Assembly: GCA_038217285.1 (NCBI GenBank)
Contig: JBBQPO010000008.1
Span: forward strand, 1 to 52,032
Source of the DNA: Chthonomonadales bacterium
GTDB taxonomy: Bacteria > Armatimonadota > Chthonomonadetes > Chthonomonadales > Chthonomonadaceae
Direction of reading: 5' to 3'
Length of the DNA: 52,032 nucleotides
A program made the translations under genes and the position numbers. The notes under the pieces are model-generated. The model searched no databases. It saw nothing but the letters and a program-made list of their open reading frames with translations, and was not told where the DNA came from. Position 1 is the first letter of the stretch; each line of letters starts with the position of its first letter. Below, piece after piece: positions 39,424 through 50,260 of this stretch.

Positions 39424-40686
39424 CTAACGGCTTTTGGCCGCCGTCGGAAGCGCCAGTACATCGTCCGGCAGCCCGCTTGCACGCAGTTCCGCCTTCGTTA
39501 ACAGTTCCAGGGCCTGTCTCGCAGCCGCCGTGGAGCGCCCTTTTGCGAGGAAGTCGCGCAGATCGTTTGCGGCAGAACGAATGTCCGGCGCCGCTGCAAT
39601 AGCGATGCCATCTTGATACTCCTTCAACGCCTGCGTCCCCTGGTCGCGAACGGCATAGGCCAGGCCGATGTTGAACCGCACGTAGGCCTGTTTCGGATCG
39701 AGCGCCAGCGCCTTGCGGCCGCTCGTTACCGATTCGTCCATCAGTCCTTCTTCATATTGCGACCATCCGAGATTACCCCACAGCGGTGAGCTATTGGGGG
39801 CCGCAGCGAGGGCCAATCGGTATTCGCTGATGGCGCTCAGATGTTTCCCCTCGGCATCCAGTATCTGGGCCAGAGTGGAATGGGCATCCACACTCTGAGC
39901 GTTTATGACGATCAGGTCGCGCGCGATTTTTTCCGCCTCTCCGAATCGCTTCAGGCCGGAGAGCGCCGAGGCGCGCCCGAGCATACCGCTCAAGTTTTTG
40001 GGGTCGATCCGCAGCGCGGCATCGTACTCCTCCAGCGCTTCCATGTGCCGATTCTCCTGCTCGTTCAGATCTCCCAGTCGCGCATGGACATCCGGACTGT
40101 CAGGCGCGAAGCCAAGGGCTGCCAACAGCGAGCGACGAGCCGCCGAATACTCTTTTTGCTGCAGATACGTCTCCGCAATCACCAGTCGGAACCGAAGATC
40201 CGAGGGAGACAGTTCCACCGCGCGATCAAAACTGGCTCGTGCCGCAGCATACTTCGCCTCGTCCACCTGGGAGGAACCGAGATAGTAGAGAAACTCAGGC
40301 TCTTTTGGACTGAGATCGACCACTGCCTGGAAAGTCTGCGTGGCCGCCGGGAACTGCCGCAGCAGGGCGTATGCCCTGCCGAGCAGTACGCGACTCTGGA
40401 TGCTTTTCGGATCAAGGGCGACAGCCTGTTTGAGCAGCACCACGGCCTCCTGCCCTTTCCCCTGCTCGAGGAGCGCCTGTCCCTTGCGGTCTAGTTCCGC
40501 AACAGTCGGCGGCGCGGGAACGGAGGGGGGCGGCGCCTGCCCGGTCGCAGGCGCTTTTGTATCCGCAGCCTTCCCAGGAGCCGTTTTCGCCGGGCCCTTC
40601 TTCTCCTGGCCTGCGGCCGTTTGAGTCCACAATGTCAGACCTAGGGCCACACCGATCACGGTTCTGCCAATCCATAAGAGCCTCAT
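39424..40686 (-). CDS. Secreted tetratricopeptide repeat protein
   Basis: Signal peptide, Pro/Ala linker and about 9 TPR units (A..L.P......LG pattern). Confidence 0.9.
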   Translation of the reverse strand: MRLLWIGRTVIGVALGLTLWTQTAAGQEKKGPAKTAPGKAADTKAPATGQAPPPSVPAPPTVAELDRKGQALLEQGKGQEAVVLLKQAVALDPKSIQSRVLLGRAYALLRQFPAATQTFQAVVDLSPKEPEFLYYLGSSQVDEAKYAAARASFDRAVELSPSDLRFRLVIAETYLQQKEYSAARRSLLAALGFAPDSPDVHARLGDLNEQENRHMEALEEYDAALRIDPKNLSGMLGRASALSGLKRFGEAEKIARDLIVINAQSVDAHSTLAQILDAEGKHLSAISEYRLALAAAPNSSPLWGNLGWSQYEEGLMDESVTSGRKALALDPKQAYVRFNIGLAYAVRDQGTQALKEYQDGIAIAAAPDIRSAANDLRDFLAKGRSTAAARQALELLTKAELRASGLPDDVLALPTAAKSR

Positions 40687-40819
40687 CGTTTATGCCTCTC
40701 CTCGCGCTTGCACACTCCGACGGGAATCGATAGTCGAGCCTATGGTAGCAGACCGGCACCCCTCTCGTCAAGCCGAACCGGGGCAGGAAAAAAGTGAGCC
40801 GTCGAAGAATATACGGAGC

Positions 40820-42325
40820 ATGAAATCACGAACCACCCGTCGATCCCTAGCGGCGGCTACTCTGCTGGCCTTGATGGTGACTGTGCTCCAAACTCCGTCC
40901 TCCCGGTGCCGCGCCGACGACGCCGGCACGGGAACCGATCCAGCTCTCGTCGAACGTATAGAGGCGCTCCTGGCCGACAAAACGCTCCAGACAGGCTTTC
41001 AGGGCCTCCTCATTCAGTCGCTCAAAGACCATACCACCCTCTATGAGCGCAACGCCGACAAGGTGTTCTTACCGGCATCCAATAATAAACTACTGACGTC
41101 CGGAGCAGCCCTTACTCTCCTGGGTCCGAGCTTTTTCTACACGACTCGCGTCGTCGCCGCCGTGCCGCCGGATCGCAAAGGTGTGCTTCACTCCGATCTC
41201 ACGCTGGTAGGTTCCGGAGATCCAGTCCTCTCGTCGGCCGATCTCACGGACCTCGCTCACTCGCTCAAGGCAGCCGGGATAAAGAGGATCGAAGGCGCCG
41301 TCACCGGCGACGACTCCCTGTTCGACCTGCAGCGCCTGGGCGATGGATGGACCTGGGACGACGAACCCTTCTACTACTCGGCGCAGGTGAGCGCCCTCAA
41401 CCTGAACGAGAATCTCGTGAGTGTCCGTGTCCTGCCTGGGATGAAAGAAGGCGATCCCGTTCGGGTTCTCGTGACACCGACGGAAAAGTACATGACGATT
41501 CGTAATCTGGCGAAGACCGCAGTCGCCAAAACAAAGTCTTCCATCCTTGTGGATCGCCTTCGTGGCCAGAATATCCTCATTGTCACCGGAGCGGTGGCCG
41601 TGGATACTACGGAACAGGACGCGCCCAAGGTGGCCGTGACCGTCGATGATCCGACGCAGTTCACCCTGACCGTCTTTCGCGAGGCCCTGGCCAGGGAGGG
41701 AATTCGGGTCGGCGGCAAGCGCTTCACGACGCCCTCCAGTACGGTGACTCTTGCCCAACATAGCTCCGTACCGCTCTCCGAAATCCTGAAGCTTCTCAAC
41801 AAACCCAGCGATAATCTGATCGCCGAGTGCCTGCTGAAGACAGTAGGCGCGTTCAAAAAAGGGAAGGGCACAGCGGGAGCCGACGGAACCGGCGCGCAGA
41901 CGGCGAGAGATCTCTTTAAATCGATAGGTATGGATGTGACGCACCTGAACCAGTCGGACGGCTCCGGCCTCTCGCGGTTCAATTTTGTCTCCCCCCGCGA
42001 CTTCGTCCAACTGCTCACGTACCTTCACAACCAATCGTCCTTCCCGGTCTTGTACGAATCACTTCCGATCGCGGGAGTCGACGGCTCGCTGCGTAATCGT
42101 CTGAAAAACAGTGCGGCGACCGGCAACTGCCATGCCAAAACCGGCTACATTTCGAGGGCGAGCAGTCTCAGCGGCTACATCACAACGAAGGATAACGAAA
42201 TGCTGGTCTTCTCTATATTAATGAACAATCACCTTTCGTCGAACGCGTTGCCCGTCTCCATTCAGGACAAGATCATGCTGCTGCTCGCGAACTACTCTCG
42301 CCCCGGTGTGCCCCATGCGCAGTGA
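40820..42325 (+). CDS. dacB: D-Ala-D-Ala carboxypeptidase/endopeptidase PBP4 (peptidase S13)
   Basis: Motifs PASNNK (SxxK), GSGDP, SDN, DGSGLSR and AKTG. ATG at 40820. Confidence 0.93.
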   Translation: MKSRTTRRSLAAATLLALMVTVLQTPSSRCRADDAGTGTDPALVERIEALLADKTLQTGFQGLLIQSLKDHTTLYERNADKVFLPASNNKLLTSGAALTLLGPSFFYTTRVVAAVPPDRKGVLHSDLTLVGSGDPVLSSADLTDLAHSLKAAGIKRIEGAVTGDDSLFDLQRLGDGWTWDDEPFYYSAQVSALNLNENLVSVRVLPGMKEGDPVRVLVTPTEKYMTIRNLAKTAVAKTKSSILVDRLRGQNILIVTGAVAVDTTEQDAPKVAVTVDDPTQFTLTVFREALAREGIRVGGKRFTTPSSTVTLAQHSSVPLSEILKLLNKPSDNLIAECLLKTVGAFKKGKGTAGADGTGAQTARDLFKSIGMDVTHLNQSDGSGLSRFNFVSPRDFVQLLTYLHNQSSFPVLYESLPIAGVDGSLRNRLKNSAATGNCHAKTGYISRASSLSGYITTKDNEMLVFSILMNNHLSSNALPVSIQDKIMLLLANYSRPGVPHAQ

Positions 42326-43427
42326 GGGCACCGCGCGCGCAGCCGTCATTCCCGGTCCAGGTCAACCTCCGGAAGTCCGAACCTACCTCATTCCTGAACT
42401 GGAACCGGGCGCGGTCCTTCTGCAAACGATTGCTTCCGAAGTCTGCGGCACCGATGTTCATCTCTGGCACGGGCGACTCGCCGGTGTCCCCTATCCTCTG
42501 ATCCCCGGCCATGTCAGCGTGGGCACGGTCGAGGCCGTCCGAGGAACCGTTGTCGATGTCGAAGGTATCCCGATCTGCAAGGGCGATGTCGTGACGTTCC
42601 TGGATGTACACGGAACCTGCGGCAGTTGCTGGTACTGCCTTGTCGCAAAGGCGAGCACCCGCTGCCCGCATCGCCGTGTCTACGGCATTACCTACGGAGC
42701 CGACGAAGGGCCCGGCCTCTCCGGGGGCTGGTCGGAACGCATCTATCTCCGGCCCAGCACGAAACTGCTGCGCCTCCTTCCCAACGTGTCGCCGGACGCC
42801 TGGATCGGCGCTGGCTGCGGACTGCCGACGGCCGTTCATGCCGTCGAACTCGCCCGCATACGGTTGGGCGACCGGGTGCTGATTCAAGGCAGTGGTCCGG
42901 TCGGACTCAGCGCCGCCATGTTGGCTCTTCTCAGTGGGGCCAGTTGGGTGGGTGTCCTCGGCGCTCCGGAGGAGAGACTTGCTACCGCCACCCGTGTCGG
43001 GGTAGACTGGACTGGAAATGTCACACAATTGACTCCGTCCGAACGAGCGGCGCAGATACGGGATGCGACAGGCGGGCGCGGACCTGACATCGTCATAGAA
43101 GCCAGCGGTAACCCGAATGCGGTTCCGGAAGGATGCGAGTTGGTTCGCGATGCTGGGCGCTATGTCGTCGTGGGACAGTATACGGATAACGGCTCGATCG
43201 AACTGAATCCGCACCTGCATATCAATCGCAAGCATCTGGAGATCCTGGGATGCTGGGGCTCTGACTTTTCTCATGTCTACCGTGCCATGGAGATCCTGGC
43301 GCGATTCGACCGCCGGATGCAGTGGTCGCAGCTCATTACCCGGCGCTACGGACTGAATGAAGTTGGTCTGGCGCTAGCCGATGTCGAAGCGAGACGGGTG
43401 GTCAAAGCCGTCGTTCTGCCCTCCTGA
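42315..43427 (+). CDS. Zinc-dependent medium-chain alcohol dehydrogenase
   Basis: Motifs CGTD and GHV (usually GHE), structural Zn site CGSCWYC...C, and GSGPVG. Confidence 0.9.
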   Translation: MRSEGTARAAVIPGPGQPPEVRTYLIPELEPGAVLLQTIASEVCGTDVHLWHGRLAGVPYPLIPGHVSVGTVEAVRGTVVDVEGIPICKGDVVTFLDVHGTCGSCWYCLVAKASTRCPHRRVYGITYGADEGPGLSGGWSERIYLRPSTKLLRLLPNVSPDAWIGAGCGLPTAVHAVELARIRLGDRVLIQGSGPVGLSAAMLALLSGASWVGVLGAPEERLATATRVGVDWTGNVTQLTPSERAAQIRDATGGRGPDIVIEASGNPNAVPEGCELVRDAGRYVVVGQYTDNGSIELNPHLHINRKHLEILGCWGSDFSHVYRAMEILARFDRRMQWSQLITRRYGLNEVGLALADVEARRVVKAVVLPS

Positions 43428-43437
43428 AGAGGCCAAC

Positions 43438-44493
43438 ATGCAGCATTCGGATACTATTTCCCAGGTCAACGCGCTGACGCAACGATTTTACACCAAAGAC
43501 GTCGCATGCGAAACCACGCTCTCCGCGCTGATGGAGTGTGTCCGGCCTGCGATCCGCAAGCGCCTTCAGGACAAGCATATTCTGGGCGATGACCTGGAGG
43601 ATCTCTACATCGAGACGGCGGAACGCCTGCTGACGGCGACCCGCCGCAGCCGTGAGCAGACGGATCACCATATCGGCAACTATATCAGTTATGCGCTCAC
43701 CGTGGCCGATACGGTCTTCGAAGATCATATCCGGCGCACCAAACCCAACTGGTGCCGACTGAAGCGCCGCATCCTCTACCTGCTGGATAACAAGACTGGG
43801 AACAAGGTCTTCGCCCGATGGCGTCTCAGCCTGCGCTGGCTCGGCGGCCTCTTTACCTGGCAGGGACAAACGTTCCAGCCCACGCGTACCTATAACGTTC
43901 TCTGCTCGGAACCGGATTCACTCTGCAGTCTGATATTTGCCCATCGCTCCCCCGAACATGTTCCCCTGCCGGAACTGCTGGCGCGCCTCTTCCGTTGGCT
44001 CGAAACTCCCCTCGAACTGGACGAGTTGACCAACCACATCGCCCAACTGCAGGGTATCGCCGATCACCTTCCCCACTCTCTCGAAGGTCTGGCAATGGTC
44101 GCCGAACGAGACACCGACTATTTCCTCCCGCCATCGTCGCATGACGTAGCGTCCGAAGTGATGGAGGCGCTCTCCAGTGAAGCGTTCCGCAAACGGATCT
44201 GGGACATCCTGTGCGAAGTGCCAATTCGCCAACGCATCGCCCTCCTTTTCGCGATGCCGCGCGATGAGGTTCTGCTGCTCGGCAGGGTCACGGAGATCGC
44301 GGCGGCAGTCGAACTGCCCTTACAGCAGTTCGCAGCGATCTGGCAGCAACTCCCGCTCTCCGATAAGGAGATCGCCGAGCGCCTGGAAATCACCCCGAAG
44401 CAGGTTTCCAACCTTCGCAAGTGTGCGAGAGAACGCATCTATCGCTGGCTGGCCCGTAAAGAAGTCGAACCGGATCAGCACAGCAATCGCTAA
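43438..44493 (+). CDS. Atypical sigma-70/ECF-like sigma factor with a long internal insertion
   Basis: Region-2-like 'DDLEDLYIETAERLL...NYISYALTVADTVFEDHIRR' and region-4-like 'VPIRQRIALL...LSDKEIAERLEITPKQVSNLRKCARERI'. It is followed by a ZAS-domain gene. Confidence 0.75.
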   Translation: MQHSDTISQVNALTQRFYTKDVACETTLSALMECVRPAIRKRLQDKHILGDDLEDLYIETAERLLTATRRSREQTDHHIGNYISYALTVADTVFEDHIRRTKPNWCRLKRRILYLLDNKTGNKVFARWRLSLRWLGGLFTWQGQTFQPTRTYNVLCSEPDSLCSLIFAHRSPEHVPLPELLARLFRWLETPLELDELTNHIAQLQGIADHLPHSLEGLAMVAERDTDYFLPPSSHDVASEVMEALSSEAFRKRIWDILCEVPIRQRIALLFAMPRDEVLLLGRVTEIAAAVELPLQQFAAIWQQLPLSDKEIAERLEITPKQVSNLRKCARERIYRWLARKEVEPDQHSNR

Positions 44494-44609
44494 CATTCTC
44501 GCAGTCCGTCAATTCCACATTCCCGGAAGAAAACTTGAAATGACAACTACATCGAACGCCACGGACGGTAGCCTGGTCCGTGATTCGGCGTCTGTATCAA
44601 GCTATCATC

Positions 44610-46277
44610 ATGGTTAACCACCTCTCGGCAGAACAACAGACGCGCTATCGAACCGGCGCCATCGTCAACGACCAGGAGCTGCAGGAGATCGACGCTCATC
44701 TGACGATCTGCGCCTCCTGTCGCGACGCGCTCTTCCACGCCCTGCGTGATAATACCGGCACACTGCGCCGGTCGCTTCTGCCTGCCCGTGACGAGCCGCA
44801 CTGCCTCGACGACCAGACGATCACCGGTTACGTGCGCGGTCAACTCGATGCCACGGATCGGGAAGTGGTCGAGGCGCATCTCGCCCTCTGTCCGCGGTGT
44901 GCTGAGGATGTGGCGTCGCTCCAGGCCTTTCATGAACAGATGCTGCGTTTCGACTGGACGACGCTCCCCGCAGAGACGCTGCGCGAGCGCCTGCGCCGCT
45001 GGTTCCACTTTCACGAATTCGGCCCCTTGCCGACCTTCCGCCAGGTGCATGAATGGTGGGAACACTACACACTCACCGCGAGAATTGTCACGGCGCTTAT
45101 TGTCGGTCTCTTGCTAGGCCTACTGCTTGGCGAGAGAGCCACGATCCTCGAACCGGTCCACGTTATCATCCTGCGTCTGCTCGGCGCACTGGCCACACCG
45201 TTGATCTTCGTCGCGATCATCCATGCCTTCCTCAAGGCGAATATGAACGCCGCCACAGCACGCAAGCTGGTCGTACTGCTCCTGACCAATACGCTGTTCG
45301 CCATTGTCGTCGGACTGATTGTCGTGAACGTTTTCAAACCCGGGAAGCATGTGAGCGTCGAGGGCGCCAATCAGATCGCGGACGTAGCCTCCCTGCATTC
45401 GCTGGCGCACAAGATGCCGCCCAGTATCCTCTCCGCCATGGCCGAGAACAACATCGTCTACGTCATTCTTGCGGCCATCGGGATCGGAATCGCCGTCCGT
45501 GCCGTCCGGCAGGAACAACAGCGCGAGGGTAGGAACGGCTACAAAGTGATCGAGGACCTGGCCGAAGTGACCTTCCTCACGCTCACGAAGATGATCCGAT
45601 GGGTCATTGCCCTCGTGCCGTTCGCCGTCTGCGCCATCATCGCCAACCTCGTTGGGCGCAAGGACTTCGAGACGGTGCGATCCCTCGGAGGCTTCGTCGG
45701 CACCGTCCTGTTCGCCCTATGCATCCAGGCGTTGTACTATCTGGTGCGGCTGCGTATGGGATCGTGGGTCACCCCTTCTCACTTCCTGCGCGCCGGACGC
45801 AGCGCATTTTTGACCGCGTTCTGGACCGCAAGTTCCGCCGCCACCATGCCCGTGACCTATCGCTGCATGCGGGAACGTGTCGGCCTGCGCGACGAGTCGA
45901 CCAGCCTGGGCATCCTGGTCGGCGGCAGCCTCAATCGTGATGGAACCGCCCTTTACCAGACGATGGCCTCTATTTTCGTAGCCCAACTCAGCGGCGTTCC
46001 CATTGCCCTGCCTCGACAACTCACGGTGATCCTGACCTCCGTCATGGCTTCGGTCGGCGCGCCGGGCATCCCGGAAGCGGGAATGGTCACCATGCTGATG
46101 ATCTTCCGCTCACTGGGCCTGCGCGAAGAGTATATCGGCCTCCTGTTGGCCGTCGACTGGCTCCTCGACCGCTGCCGAACCATGGTCAATGTCATGGGTC
46201 ATACCAGCGTCACGTGCATCCTCGATGGCAAAGAGCGGCCTCTCGAAGCTGTCCGGAGCGCCCCAGCCGTTCTCTAA
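44610..46277 (+). CDS. Fusion of two zf-HC2 (ZAS) anti-sigma domains to a dicarboxylate/amino acid:cation symporter (DAACS/SLC1)
   Basis: HLTICASC and HLALCPRC (HxxxCxxC) are followed in frame by DAACS motifs PLIF, AFWTASSAATMP, NRDGTALY, SVGAPGIPEAG and VDWLLDRCRTMVNV. Confidence 0.88.
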   Translation: MVNHLSAEQQTRYRTGAIVNDQELQEIDAHLTICASCRDALFHALRDNTGTLRRSLLPARDEPHCLDDQTITGYVRGQLDATDREVVEAHLALCPRCAEDVASLQAFHEQMLRFDWTTLPAETLRERLRRWFHFHEFGPLPTFRQVHEWWEHYTLTARIVTALIVGLLLGLLLGERATILEPVHVIILRLLGALATPLIFVAIIHAFLKANMNAATARKLVVLLLTNTLFAIVVGLIVVNVFKPGKHVSVEGANQIADVASLHSLAHKMPPSILSAMAENNIVYVILAAIGIGIAVRAVRQEQQREGRNGYKVIEDLAEVTFLTLTKMIRWVIALVPFAVCAIIANLVGRKDFETVRSLGGFVGTVLFALCIQALYYLVRLRMGSWVTPSHFLRAGRSAFLTAFWTASSAATMPVTYRCMRERVGLRDESTSLGILVGGSLNRDGTALYQTMASIFVAQLSGVPIALPRQLTVILTSVMASVGAPGIPEAGMVTMLMIFRSLGLREEYIGLLLAVDWLLDRCRTMVNVMGHTSVTCILDGKERPLEAVRSAPAVL

Positions 46278-46301: not shown

Positions 46302-49300
46302 CTACTCTTTCGGCGTATAGTTCAAGTTGGGTGAGAGCCAGCGCTCCACCTCCGACACTTCCATTCCTTTGCGGGCAGCGTATTCGGTGACCTGATCGGT
46401 TTCGATCTTTCCGACGGGGAAGTACCGTGACGCCGGGTGCGCGAAATAGAAGCCGCTGACAGAACTGGCAGGATACATCGCGTAGCTCTCCGTCAGATGA
46501 ATGTCCGCTTTTTCCTTGACGCCCAGCAGTTCCCAGAGAAGCGCTTTCTCGGTGTGGTCCGGGCAGGCCGGATAGCCCGGCGCGGGCCGGATTCCCCGGT
46601 ACTTTTCGCGGATATAGTCGTCGGTGCTGAGCGCTTCCTCCGTGCCATATCCCCACGCATCGCGGGCGATCTTGTGCAGCTTTTCGGCAAAAGCTTCTGC
46701 CAGTCGATCCGCGAGAGCCTCGACCATGATCGCGTTGTAGTCGTCGAGCTCTGACTGGAACTTCTTGACCACGACGTCCATGCCGTGCCCCGACGTGACG
46801 GCGAACGCCCCGACATAGTCGGGCAGACCGGTCGATTTGGGCGCGATGAAGTCCGCGATGGCATAGTTGACCGTTTCCGGCCCCTTGTCCATCTGCTGCC
46901 GCAGGGTATGCAGCGTCATCAAGACCTCGCCTCGTCCCTCGTCTGTATAGAGCTCGATGTCGTCGCCCACGCTGTTGGCGGGGAAAAGACCGTAGACCCC
47001 ATTCGCGGTCAGGCTCTTGTCCTTGACGAGTTGCGCCAGCAGCTTCTGCGCGTCGTCGAAGACCTTCTTCGCTTCTTCGCCGACGATCTCATCCTCGAAG
47101 ATCGCCGGATAACGTCCGGTCAGCTCCCAGGTATGGAAGAACGGCGTCCAGTCGATGAAAGGCACGAGATCCTTGAGCGGGAAGTTTTTCAGCTCCCGTA
47201 TCCCCAGCGCTTCCGGTATCGCGATGTCTTCTTTGTTCCAGACGATAGACGTCCGGCGTTTCCGCGCTTCCATCAGGGAGACCATCGCGCGCTCTCTGGT
47301 TCGGTTGGCATACTCCTCCCGAAGACGCTCCTGCTCGCATCGGTTCTGCTCGACGAAGGCCGACTTCGTCTCCGCACCGAGCAGGTTGCTGACAACGCCG
47401 ACAGCACGTGACGCGTCGGTCACATGAACGATCGGTTGCTTGTAGTGCTGCGCGATCTTGATGGCCGTGTGCGGCTTGCTTGTCGTCGCCCCCCCAATCA
47501 GCAATGGCACCGTAAATCCCTGCCGCTCCATCTCTTTCGCGACATAGATCATCTCGTCGAGGGACGGCGTGATCAGGCCGCTCAAGCCGATGATGTCGGC
47601 ACCGATCTCCTTCGCGGTCTGCAGGATCTTGTCGCAGGCGACCATGACGCCCATGTCGATAATCTCGTAGTTGTTACAGCCGAGGACGACGCCGACGATA
47701 TTCTTGCCGATGTCGTGTACATCGCCTTTAACGGTGGCCATCAGAATCTTGCCCTGCGCCTTGGTTTCGCCGCCTGCCGCCCGAACCGCCGCCTTCTCGG
47801 CCTCCATGAAGGGCAGCAGCACAGCGACCGCTCGCTTCATGACACGCGCCGACTTCACCACCTGCGGCAGAAACATCTTGCCCGCCCCGAACAGATCGCC
47901 GACGACGTTCATGCCGGCCATCAAGGGGCCTTCAATCACGCTGAGCGGCTTGTCGTACTGCTGCCGCGCCTCTTCGACGTCCGCTTCGATGAAGTCCGTG
48001 ATACCCTTGATAAGCGCATGAGAGAGCCGCGAATCGACGCTCTCCTGCCGCCAGGCGTCGTCTTTGACCTGAACTTTGCCCTTTTCGCCCTTGACGGTCT
48101 CGGCAAACGTCAGAAGCCGCTCGGTCGAGTCCGGGCGTCGATTGAGCAGCACATCCTCCACCAGACCCAGCAGCTCCTTCGGGATCTCTTCATAGACCGC
48201 CAACTGCCCCGCATTGACGATGCCCATGTCCAGACCGGCCTGTATCGCATGATACAGGAACACGGAGTGCATCGCCTCCCGAACCACGTTGTTACCCCGG
48301 AAGGAGAACGAGATGTTGCTGACGCCGCCGCTCACTTTGCACCCCGGCAGATTCTGCTTGATCCACCGAGTAGCCTCGATGAACGCGACTGCATAGCCGT
48401 TATGCTCCTCGATACCGGTTGCCACGGTCAGAATGTTGGGGTCGAAGATGATGTCCTGTGGCGGAAAGCCGACCTCCTCCGTCAGGATGCGGTAGGCGCG
48501 TTGGCAGATCGCGATCTTTCGCTCGAAGCTGTCGGCCTGCCCCTGCTCGTCGAAGGCCATGACGACCACAGCCGCGCCGTAACGCCGGACGAGTCGCCCC
48601 TGCTCCCGAAATTTCGCTTCTCCCTCTTTCATCGAGATCGAGTTGACGATGCCCTTGCCCTGAATGCATTTCAGGCCCGCTTCGATCACTTCCCATTTCG
48701 AGCTGTCCACCATGATCGGAACACGAGAGATCGAGTCATCCGGGCCGACAAGGTTGAGGAACGTCGTCATCGCATTCGCGCCATCGAGCATGCCTTCATC
48801 CATGTTGATATCGATGATGTTCGCGCCGCTCTCGACCTGTTGCCGCGCCACGGTAAGCGCCGCATCGTAGTCGCCGCCGAGGATCAGCTTCGAGAACTTC
48901 GGAGAGCCTGTAACGTTTGTGCGCTCGCCAACATTGATGAAGTTCGTCTCCGGGCGCAGTGTGAGCGCCTCCAACCCACTCAGACGCGTAAACTCCGCCA
49001 CCTGCGGCACGATTCGCGGGGCATACCCCTTCACCGCCTGGGCAATGGCCCGGATATGATTGGGGGTCGTTCCGCAGCATCCACCGACGATATTAAGCCA
49101 GCCGTTCGCAGCCCACTCCCCCAACAGTGGCGCCAGCGACTCGGGTGTCTCTGGGAACCCTGTGGGTGACAGCGGATCGGGAAGTCCGGCATTCGGGTAG
49201 GCGCTCACGTAGATCGGAGCCATGCCCGACAGCTCCTCGATATAGGGCCTCATCAGATCCGGGCCGAAGGCACAGTTGAGGCCTACACTGAGCAGAGGGG

Positions 49301-50006
49301 CGTGCGAAATGGAGTTCCAGAAGCCTTCGAGCGTCTGACCGGACATGGTGCGTCCGCCCTGGTCCAAAAAGAGGCTCGCCATGACGGGAACCCGTCGCCC
49401 ACCCTCGTCGAAAAATTTCTGGATGGCGAACAGCGCCGCCTTCAAGTTCATTGTGTCGAAAGTCGTTTCGGCCAGCAAGAGATCGGACCCACCGTCGATC
49501 AGTCCGCGAACCTGTTCGAGATACGATTCCATCACCTGATCGAACGTGACAAAGCGCTTCCCAGGGTCGTTGACATCGGTCGCGATTGACAAGGTGCGAT
49601 TCATTGGGCCAAGCGACCCCGCCACAAACCGCAGCCGCGATCCGTCTGCCGCCTGAATCCTGTCAACCGCTCGGCGCGCTATTTTCGTCGCCTCGACGTT
49701 CATCTCGTACGCCAGATCGGACAGGCCATACTCCGCCAGTCCGATTCGCGTTGCGCCGAACGTATTGGTTTCGATAATGTCCGCGCCAGCCTCCAGGTAA
49801 GCGGTATGTATCTCCTCGATCACGTCCGGCCGGGCAAAGTTCAGCACCTCGTTATTGTTCTTCAGGTCGATGGCATGGTCGCGGAACCGTTCGCCGCGAT
49901 AGTCGGCCTCTTCCAGTTTATACTGCTGGACCACGGTCCCCATCGCGCCATCGATGATGAGGATCCGCTCTTTCAGCAGAGAAACGATGGGATGATTATT
50001 TTCCAT
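46302..50006 (-). CDS. metH: Cobalamin-dependent methionine synthase
   Basis: Motifs [22 protein letters not shown]12 motif GDVHDIGKN, and activation-domain [15 protein letters not shown] at 50006. Confidence 0.98.
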
Positions 50007-50260
50007 GCTCCCTAACTTCCTTTCGTGTAGCCATTTCTTGCAGTCCCAACTCTCTCCAGACGATGTCTTTCGACTCGACTTCGGTTTCTCCACTCATACG
50101 CTTCATACGCTTCCGCCGTACCAGGTCTGACAGTTTCGACCGTATTTCGTGTGCAGTTATAAGCCAGCATCCCTCCGGTTCGCTCATTGAGTCCCTTTGT
50201 AAAATCTTGATCGAAGAGACCTCCATTATACCCGACATGGCTACATCGCTTTCGGGCAGC

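Follow-up and report, generated by a model that had tools for sequence, protein, structure and literature searches.

The zinc-binding anti-sigma (ZAS) proteins RsrA, RslA and ChrR, which sense thiol oxidation, singlet oxygen or zinc, are among the closest described counterparts of a gene pair that we analyzed in a 52,032-nucleotide stretch of DNA from a Chthonomonadales bacterium (contig JBBQPO010000008.1 of assembly GCA_038217285.1; the whole 52-kb stretch is hereafter called the window, and all positions are given in it). The first gene (43438-44493, + strand) encodes a 351-residue protein resembling an extracytoplasmic function (ECF) sigma factor, and the second (44610-46277, + strand) encodes a 555-residue protein composed of two ZAS units, a 39-residue linker and a full SDF domain, the SLC1 fold of the dicarboxylate/amino acid:cation symporters (DAACS). 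The ChrR/SigE, RslA/SigL and RsrA/SigR pairs share with this locus the motif in which a His or Cys precedes HxxxCxxC, as well as the position of the ZAS gene directly 3' of the sigma gene, and they form a clamp involving the sigma2 and sigma4 domains, which is predicted here. However, ChrR, RslA and RsrA present a single ZAS unit instead of two in tandem, the sigma factors of class I ZAS systems lack the 135-residue insert that here lies between sigma2 and sigma4, and the C-terminal part, which in the described proteins is absent or consists of a cupin domain or a single helix, is here a full SDF fold. Our preferred interpretation, held with only slightly better than even confidence, is that of a sigma/anti-sigma pair in which an entire SDF/SLC1-fold domain, under the control of a ligand, stands in for the usual sensory part, made of one membrane helix and an outer domain.

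To our knowledge, the signals of ECF pathways enter by way of single-pass anti-sigmas, cascades of proteolysis, partner switching or transducers in the outer membrane, and bacterial transporters that take part in sensing do so in trans, through kinases or activators of the ToxR type. Carrier folds are known as the sensing input of a transcription pathway from DctA/DcuS (DctA being a DAACS member), LysP/CadC, UhpC/UhpT and the yeast proteins Snf3/Rgt2 and Ssy1; in contrast to transporter co-sensors acting on a kinase or a ToxR-like activator, the output here would be the sequestration of a sigma factor through a covalent link. The Amt-histidine kinase fusion of Kuenenia (PMC5764959) makes the same use of a carrier fold. 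In the FecA-FecR-FecI system, a transport protein passes on its substrate occupancy to an anti-sigma/sigma regulator and an ECF sigma factor, which induces uptake genes; FecA, however, is a TonB-dependent receptor of the outer membrane and acts on a FecR-type protein in trans, whereas here an inner-membrane SLC1 fold is joined in cis to the ZAS units.

A first-pass annotation of the window, made from the sequence alone, had considered a covalent anti-sigma-SLC1 fusion to be undescribed. Our full-text literature searches agree, as neither a fusion of ZAS to SDF nor a tandem arrangement of ZAS units was found described, the supplements of classification papers, which possibly list such architectures, lying outside the search. 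The ECF reclassification (PMC7826278) mentions anti-sigmas whose membrane helices number one to four or six, and the anti-sigma classification (PMC7406223) reports that 132 subgroups with 'unlikely' Pfam domains were dropped; fusions of the present type may have been filtered out in such earlier work. What is new here is the tandem-ZAS family, the loss of the Na1 aspartate in the fusions, the conserved GGTAGC-N16-CGTC motif and the plain SDF gene located 3' of the fusion in three relatives.

Architecture and conservation of the fusion

The sigma-like open reading frame (ORF) followed by one uninterrupted ORF, as reported in the first-pass annotation, was confirmed by the ORF listing (43438-44493 and 44580-46277). 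The second frame is open without a break from 44580 to 46277 on the + strand, and its start is the ATG at 44610 (MVNHLS...), used by all homologues, not the GTG at 44580, so that the protein has 555 residues, not 565; the ZAS ligands are numbered from this ATG, which lies 116 nucleotides after the end of the sigma ORF.

The two zinc fingers with an upstream ligand, also described at first pass, were found in the window as HLTICASC (44697-44720) and HLALCPRC (44877-44900), the upstream residue being His or Cys (MVNHLS in unit 1, PHCLDD in unit 2). Unit 1 (44610-44780, + strand; His4 ... H30-x3-C34-x2-C37) is defined by its ligand columns and by the three-helix unit seen in the model, and unit 2 (44787-44954, + strand; His65/Cys66 ... 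H90-x3-C94-x2-C97) by its ligand columns and by its sequence, which matches ChrR (E 4e-5) and 3hug_B (E 1.4e-4) in their anti-sigma domains. All 11 aligned modules share the H, C and C columns without variation, and the first ligand is always His or Cys, alternating between the two among homologues in both units. The Pfam match of the fusion to zf-HC2 (PF13490; E 8.7e-12, 45.3 bits versus a cut-off of 22.2, in two stretches) is far beyond chance, and the sequence holds two complete ZAS units. The match of unit 1 to the anti-sigma DdvA is weak (E 0.004), and the fusion does not reach the full-length anti-sigma equivalogs of NCBIfam (36.8 versus 100 and 34.5 versus 124.5). The linker from the ZAS pair to the first transmembrane helix (44955-45071, + strand) is modeled as two short helices with a low predicted local distance difference test score (pLDDT 55 to 63). 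Since its charges are balanced (five Arg/Lys and five Asp/Glu), the positive-inside rule gives no independent support for the topology, and the cytoplasmic position of the N terminus, and with it the presumed cytoplasmic position of the ZAS pair, rests on the established topology of SLC1 proteins. The SDF domain extends from 45072 to the stop codon at 46277 (+ strand).

The fusion is not confined to this assembly. Among the best 120 protein clusters, 15 combine PF13490 with PF00375 and 105 carry PF00375 alone, and the 15 fusion clusters stem from ENA, JGI, NCBI and Logan assemblies. The N-terminal module was detected at E<=1e-70 in all five genomes of the window's genus, and full fusions of 579 and 598 residues occur in G034 and G019, which belong to another genus of the same family; close relatives thus keep the fusion and do not encode its parts separately. 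When 401 evenly sampled genomes of the phylum were compared, matches over the full length were found only in G000, G001, G002, G019 and G034, plus G003, where the match is spread over two contigs, whereas some SDF match occurs in 152 of the 401. As in the window, the order sigma, fusion, metH is present on at least two more metagenome contigs (L108 and L109). When only the 150 N-terminal residues were used in a word-based protein search, it returned only the 13 close relatives, the metagenome scan gave no deep-lineage fusion among the matches listed, and a contig scan whose patterns also match plain SDF genes gave 80 plain SDF loci and no fusion, near-window records being possibly omitted. For five deep-lineage fusions, a homologue of the long sigma factor comes from the same sources with equal longest-contig sizes (6046, 9126, 8727, 66475 and 13876), which suggests that the sigma gene is adjacent to them as well.

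In a quick maximum-likelihood tree of the SDF domain (56 rows), the 17 fusions, whose stems are long, lie on one side of a branch with a Shimodaira-Hasegawa-like approximate likelihood ratio test value (SH-aLRT) of 96, and the plain SDF genes of the fusion-bearing genomes group with the plain SDFs. The ratios of nonsynonymous to synonymous substitution rates (dN/dS) between the window and four relatives, rough because dS is near saturation, are 0.12 to 0.16 for the ZAS units, 0.06 to 0.14 for the linker and 0.09 to 0.14 for the SDF domain; all modules of the fusion are under purifying selection. The junction itself is covered by a contig of run X1, which spans 44879-45788 with zero differences. 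In run X2, which belongs to a different study, one contig ends and the next begins at 45045-45069, the overlap being only 25 nucleotides, and the junction is not bridged at 31 letters, and runs X3 and X4 gave short pieces only at the locus. The fusion is covalent, conserved and old, and an assembly artefact is excluded.

Apart from this, contigs of run X3 join across 43535-44977 and across 45071-45344, at a depth of 2 to 3.8 and with shorter sides of 20 and 46 letters. These joins, with 85% likeness in the metagenome, most likely derive from other organisms.

The representative clusters matched by a tandem-ZAS profile number 12,544 at E<=0.001, and 1,879 remain at E<=1e-10. Nearly all of the best 150 representatives have two motifs about 60 residues apart, and most have one transmembrane helix near residue 140, as called by a crude predictor made for this analysis, followed by a further 200 to 350 residues; an SDF domain is found in five of the 150. 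Among 101 longer members, Pfam recognized zf-HC2 in 98, TPR_19 in 13, DUF928 in 10 and SDF in 4. The arrangement of a sigma gene of this kind followed by a tandem-ZAS gene recurs at five other loci within the family and order, and the source annotations of the fusions read only 'DAACS family symporter'. On the basis of these sequence comparisons, the SDF fusion is a rare domain swap within a large, ordinary-looking, undescribed family of normally single-pass anti-sigma proteins.

Two further observations concern this module. The proteins P0263 and P0304 carry HxxxCxxC arrays of four (27/99/169/240) and three (30/105/177) units; therefore, the ZAS unit can build longer arrays. Moreover, a paralogous pair on contig C159 of G000 (L021, 3294-5446, - strand) consists of a 242-residue ECF sigma factor without the insert, followed by a 451-residue tandem-ZAS protein that is 35% identical to the module of the window and has no SDF domain.

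The sigma factor and its predicted complex

The upstream ORF falls short of the profiles that define sigma factors. TIGR02937 scores 42.8 bits, just below its cut-off of 42.9, the Pfam r4_2 profile scores 15.6 versus a cut-off of 25.7, and Sigma70_r2 gives no match. Thus, of the domains that were to be sought by profile hidden Markov models, zf-HC2 and SDF lie above their cut-offs in the fusion, whereas regions 2 and 4 of Sigma70 remain below threshold in its neighbor. The sigma fold proposed at first pass was nevertheless recovered in the predicted structure, which contains both sigma2 and sigma4. The AlphaFold2 model, built from 49 sequences, has a pLDDT of 87.3, and Foldseek ranked sigma factors at the top, albeit weakly (none of 154 matches at E<=0.001; the best, sigma32, at 9.2e-3). 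With VIA-align, residues 3-99 superpose on the sigma2 domain of SigC (Z 11.7, root mean square deviation [rmsd] 2.2, 88/88), and residues 244-343 superpose on region 4 of sigmaE (Z 7.9, rmsd 2.5, 69/69) and, within 249-340, on the sigma4 domain of SigD (Z 7.9, rmsd 1.6, 62/62).

The predicted sigma2 (43438-43761, + strand) and sigma4 (44167-44472, + strand) domains are parted by a folded, well-predicted insert of about 135 residues (residues 109-243; 43762-44166, + strand) with a beta hairpin at 125-138. A protein-atlas search with residues 109-243 gave no usable match to the fold of the insert. The insert is conserved in the approximately 47 clusters of homologues of about 350 residues and is under purifying selection, the dN/dS of the sigma gene being 0.04 to 0.08, insert included. 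ECF sigma factors are expected to have a short linker between sigma2 and sigma4 without an extra domain, which is not the case here. According to its model, the 351-residue protein works like an ECF sigma factor, yet it lacks two ECF features, namely, a score above the profile thresholds and the short linker.

The sigma factor was modeled together with the tandem ZAS module and two zinc ions in three runs. The interaction prediction score from aligned errors (ipSAE) was 0.75 (0.74, 0.75 and 0.75), versus 0.00 for the best of three controls; in the calibration of the tool, 58 complexes out of 80 solved ones attained this mark, as did 2 out of 110 mismatched pairs. The runs share at least 76% of their contacts, and the pLDDT of the partner is 76 or higher. 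On the ZAS side of the model, residues 82-90 contact the recognition helix of sigma4 (318-336) and ZAS residues 103-108 contact sigma2 (107-114), and the ZAS partner is also touched by residues 121-124, 138-140 and 176-189 of the sigma insert. The modeling supports a predicted binding of the sigma factor by the ZAS module, as foreseen in the first-pass annotation, and the ZAS gene adjoins the sigma gene at every locus examined. The assignment of the two genes as a sigma/anti-sigma pair is supported.

Cation site, promoter-like motifs and proposed mechanism

Pfam places SDF (PF00375, E 8.1e-93) on residues 165-549 of the fusion, over profile positions 1-385 of 387, behind a presumably cytoplasmic N-terminal extension of 154 residues, and the closest solved relatives of the domain are aspartate transporters and GltPh. 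Like GltPh, GltTk, the EAATs, GltP and DctA, the fusion has the full SDF fold and the substrate residues: the equivalents of GltPh D394, R397, T398 and N401 are kept in all fusions scored, and the alignment to GltPh and other solved SLC1 proteins shows that the NxDGT motif and the serines of helical hairpin 1 (HP1) are kept as well. Different from these proteins, the fusions bear, besides the 154-residue extension, His, Thr or Ala at the position of D405, Arg at M311 and Asn at T92. In particular, the protein of the window has His in place of the Na1 ligand D405 (46200-46202), Arg at M311 (45936-45938) and Asn at T92. The complete DAACS symporter announced at first pass is therefore complete in its fold but not fully canonical at the cation site.

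The position of D405 carries Asp in none of 21 fusions (His in 18, Thr in 2 and Ala in 1), whereas it does so in all 53 plain SDF relatives aligned with them and in 105 of 105 plain relatives of a second set. At M311, all 17 fusions scored have Arg, and the residue in the plain relatives is His (64) or Asn (41). Of the columns that hardly vary among the plain relatives, only seven are changed in the fusions, one of these changes being an Ala-to-Pro replacement in helical hairpin 2 (HP2) that is found in 21 of 21 fusions. As a separate observation, the plain relatives P0018 to P0122 form a whole subfamily with Asn at T92, His or Asn at M311 and a retained D405, an uncharacterized cation-site variant.

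As stated in PMC12668577, R397 binds the side-chain carboxylate of the substrate, D394 binds its amino group and both set the specificity. Since their equivalents are kept, the likely ligand of the fused SDF domain is an acidic amino acid or a near analogue. PMC9171649 describes D405 as the sole side chain at the Na1 site of GltPh and reports that the D405N and D405A variants bind Asp without Na+, HP2 being open in the apo state. The cation-site residue lost in every fusion scored argues for a receptor-like or uncoupled domain over a normal symporter.

A further conserved element is a promoter-like motif. The strict pattern GGTAGC-N16-CGTC has two matches in the window, both on the + strand: motif 1 (40744-40769), about 50 nucleotides 5' of the likely start of a gene for a PBP4-type carboxypeptidase, and motif 2 (44567-44592), 17 nucleotides 5' of the fusion ATG. 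The motif also occurs at the equivalent position 5' of the PBP4 gene in G001 and G002, 5' of the fusion gene in G002 and G004 and 5' of the sigma gene in G034, with a variant, GGTAGC-N16-CGTT, 5' of the sigma gene in G019. In six aligned regions 5' of the fusion gene, GTAG ... TTCnnCGTCT is invariant (6/6) and the spacer is variable. A putative function of the motif rests on this conservation at matching positions; the sigma factor that reads it would presumably be the one encoded here. Furthermore, a plain, Asp-bearing SDF gene lies directly 3' of the fusion in G002, G034 and G019, an arrangement reminiscent of UhpC/UhpT, in that a sensor-like paralogue adjoins a canonical carrier in these three relatives.

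If the SDF domain is the ligand-controlled sensory part of the pair, as we prefer to think, the two presumably cytoplasmic and zinc-binding units are predicted to clamp the sigma factor between sigma2 and sigma4 and to tether it at the membrane. The SDF domain, in which the residues for binding an acidic amino acid are kept, would take up its ligand in the pocket probably without normal Na+ coupling, because of the loss of the Na1 Asp and the Arg at M311, and would act as a receptor or as an uncoupled carrier. Ligand occupancy, or the movement of the transport domain, would then alter the cytoplasmic face and free the sigma factor, either directly or by exposing a ZAS region to proteolysis. 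The motifs and the synteny suggest that the free sigma factor would read the GGTAGC-N16-CGTC promoters of a PBP4-dehydrogenase-sigma operon and of the fusion gene, which would amount to autoregulation; in the relatives, it would also reach the canonical SDF gene just 3' of the fusion. It is tempting to go one step further and hypothesize that the fused SDF domain no longer transports and has become a dedicated receptor with an SLC1 fold, in which the ligand would move the gate or the elevator and thereby release the ECF-type sigma factor directly, but this extension is tentative, and we consider it doubtful.

Several points weigh against a ligand-controlled SDF domain. The plain relatives are themselves atypical, with Asn at T92 and His or Asn at M311. 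According to PMC12668577, D405N and M311L mark lost Na+ coupling and are a signature of working H+-coupled transporters; since the loss of D405 and M311 is shared with such working carriers, a loss of transport does not follow, and the cation-site changes, read from the sequence, would mean altered coupling rather than lost transport. The score of the complex model may reflect its resemblance to solved sigma/anti-sigma complexes, and the full-length model shows no confident contact between ZAS units and transporter, with the linker at the low pLDDT given above. Across the genome, GGTAGC-N16-CGTC is not enriched (19 matches at N16 versus 4 to 21 at other spacings), and no regulon emerged from the scan. 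Motif 2 leaves only some 17 nucleotides before the fusion ATG, and the sole plain SDF gene of this genome lacks the motif and is located on another contig, C82, where it lies behind uvrB.

Should ligand control by the SDF domain hold true, the system would be the shortest possible wire from the binding site of a carrier to RNA polymerase, as well as a compact and portable sensor design made of a ligand pocket, an anti-sigma, an orthogonal sigma factor and a promoter. It would offer a natural case for studying how an elevator-type conformational change is read on the cytoplasmic side, and the family-wide loss of the Na1 Asp gives a testable handle on the change from carrier to receptor. If the SDF domain were a dedicated receptor, this would be a one-protein transceptor pathway and, in view of the tandem ZAS units and of the insert predicted to contact them, an undescribed ECF group.

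A different possibility is that the ZAS units themselves sense redox state or metal (thiol oxidation, singlet oxygen or zinc), the SDF domain being a mere anchor or an independent carrier. Both units have full H/C-H-C-C ligand sets, the second resembles ChrR and 3hug_B in sequence and most tandem-ZAS relatives are ordinary single-pass proteins, all of which would suit such a sensor; however, the switching of the first ligand between His and Cys fits structural zinc better than fixed redox chemistry. We regard this explanation as unlikely, also because an anchor leaves unexplained the purifying selection acting on the 385-position SDF fold and on its substrate residues, as well as the specific cation-site changes shared by all fusions.

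Somewhat less probable still is a ligand-independent release of the sigma factor by regulated proteolysis or membrane stress, the SDF domain being controlled through degradation, for example, by FtsH, Lon or Clp acting on the N terminus. The site-1/site-2 cleavage known for anti-sigmas suits single-pass substrates, and a fold of eight helices and two hairpins is an unlikely one; moreover, the conserved substrate pocket would be left without a role. These objections stand against the fact that proteolysis is the commonest inactivation route of membrane anti-sigmas, and against the flexibility of the linker in the model.

The logic could also be the reverse, with sigma or zinc binding at the N terminus regulating a working transporter and transcription control being secondary. 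N-terminal regulatory domains are common on carriers, and the SDF domain here is intact, matching its profile at 385 of 387 positions, but the order of sigma and ZAS genes and the conserved promoter-like motif are typical of ECF autoregulatory pairs, and the tandem-ZAS module also serves many anti-sigmas that are not transporters, which makes this arrangement very improbable. Finally, an assembly chimera or a decaying gene has practically no likelihood, since, despite the X2 contigs that end and begin near the junction with 25 nucleotides in common, the X1 contig crosses it without differences, the same open fusion recurs in assemblies of four sources and dN/dS is about 0.1 in each module.

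Neighboring genes

The pair belongs to a set of four tightly packed genes on the + strand, encoding the PBP4-type carboxypeptidase, a dehydrogenase, the sigma-like protein and the fusion. The first gene of the putative operon, for a PBP4-type D-Ala-D-Ala carboxypeptidase/endopeptidase (40820-42325, + strand), matches TIGR00666 with 307.8 bits versus a cut-off of 107.8. Its start at 40820 (MKSRTT...) is deduced from a signal-peptide-like N terminus and from the relatives, whereas the start in the ORF list, 40742, falls inside the conserved motif. The second gene (42306-43427, + strand) encodes a Zn-dependent medium-chain dehydrogenase (HpnZ/Tdh-like), whose top NCBIfam match is TIGR03366; at 149 bits versus a cut-off of 328, it reaches no NCBIfam equivalog. 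The dehydrogenase gene is a conserved neighbor of the sigma gene in both genera (G001, G002, G034 and G019). On the 3' side, the fusion gene is followed by metH on the opposite strand (46302-50093).

A terminator-like hairpin (40532-40555) is located 5' of motif 1. A scan for sigma70-type promoters found none close to the sigma gene or the fusion gene on the + strand. At locus L020 of G019, three tandem copies of CAGCATTCAAA lie 5' of the sigma gene and AATTTGTTCTAC occurs twice 5' of the dehydrogenase gene; these repeats may be operator sites of another regulator.

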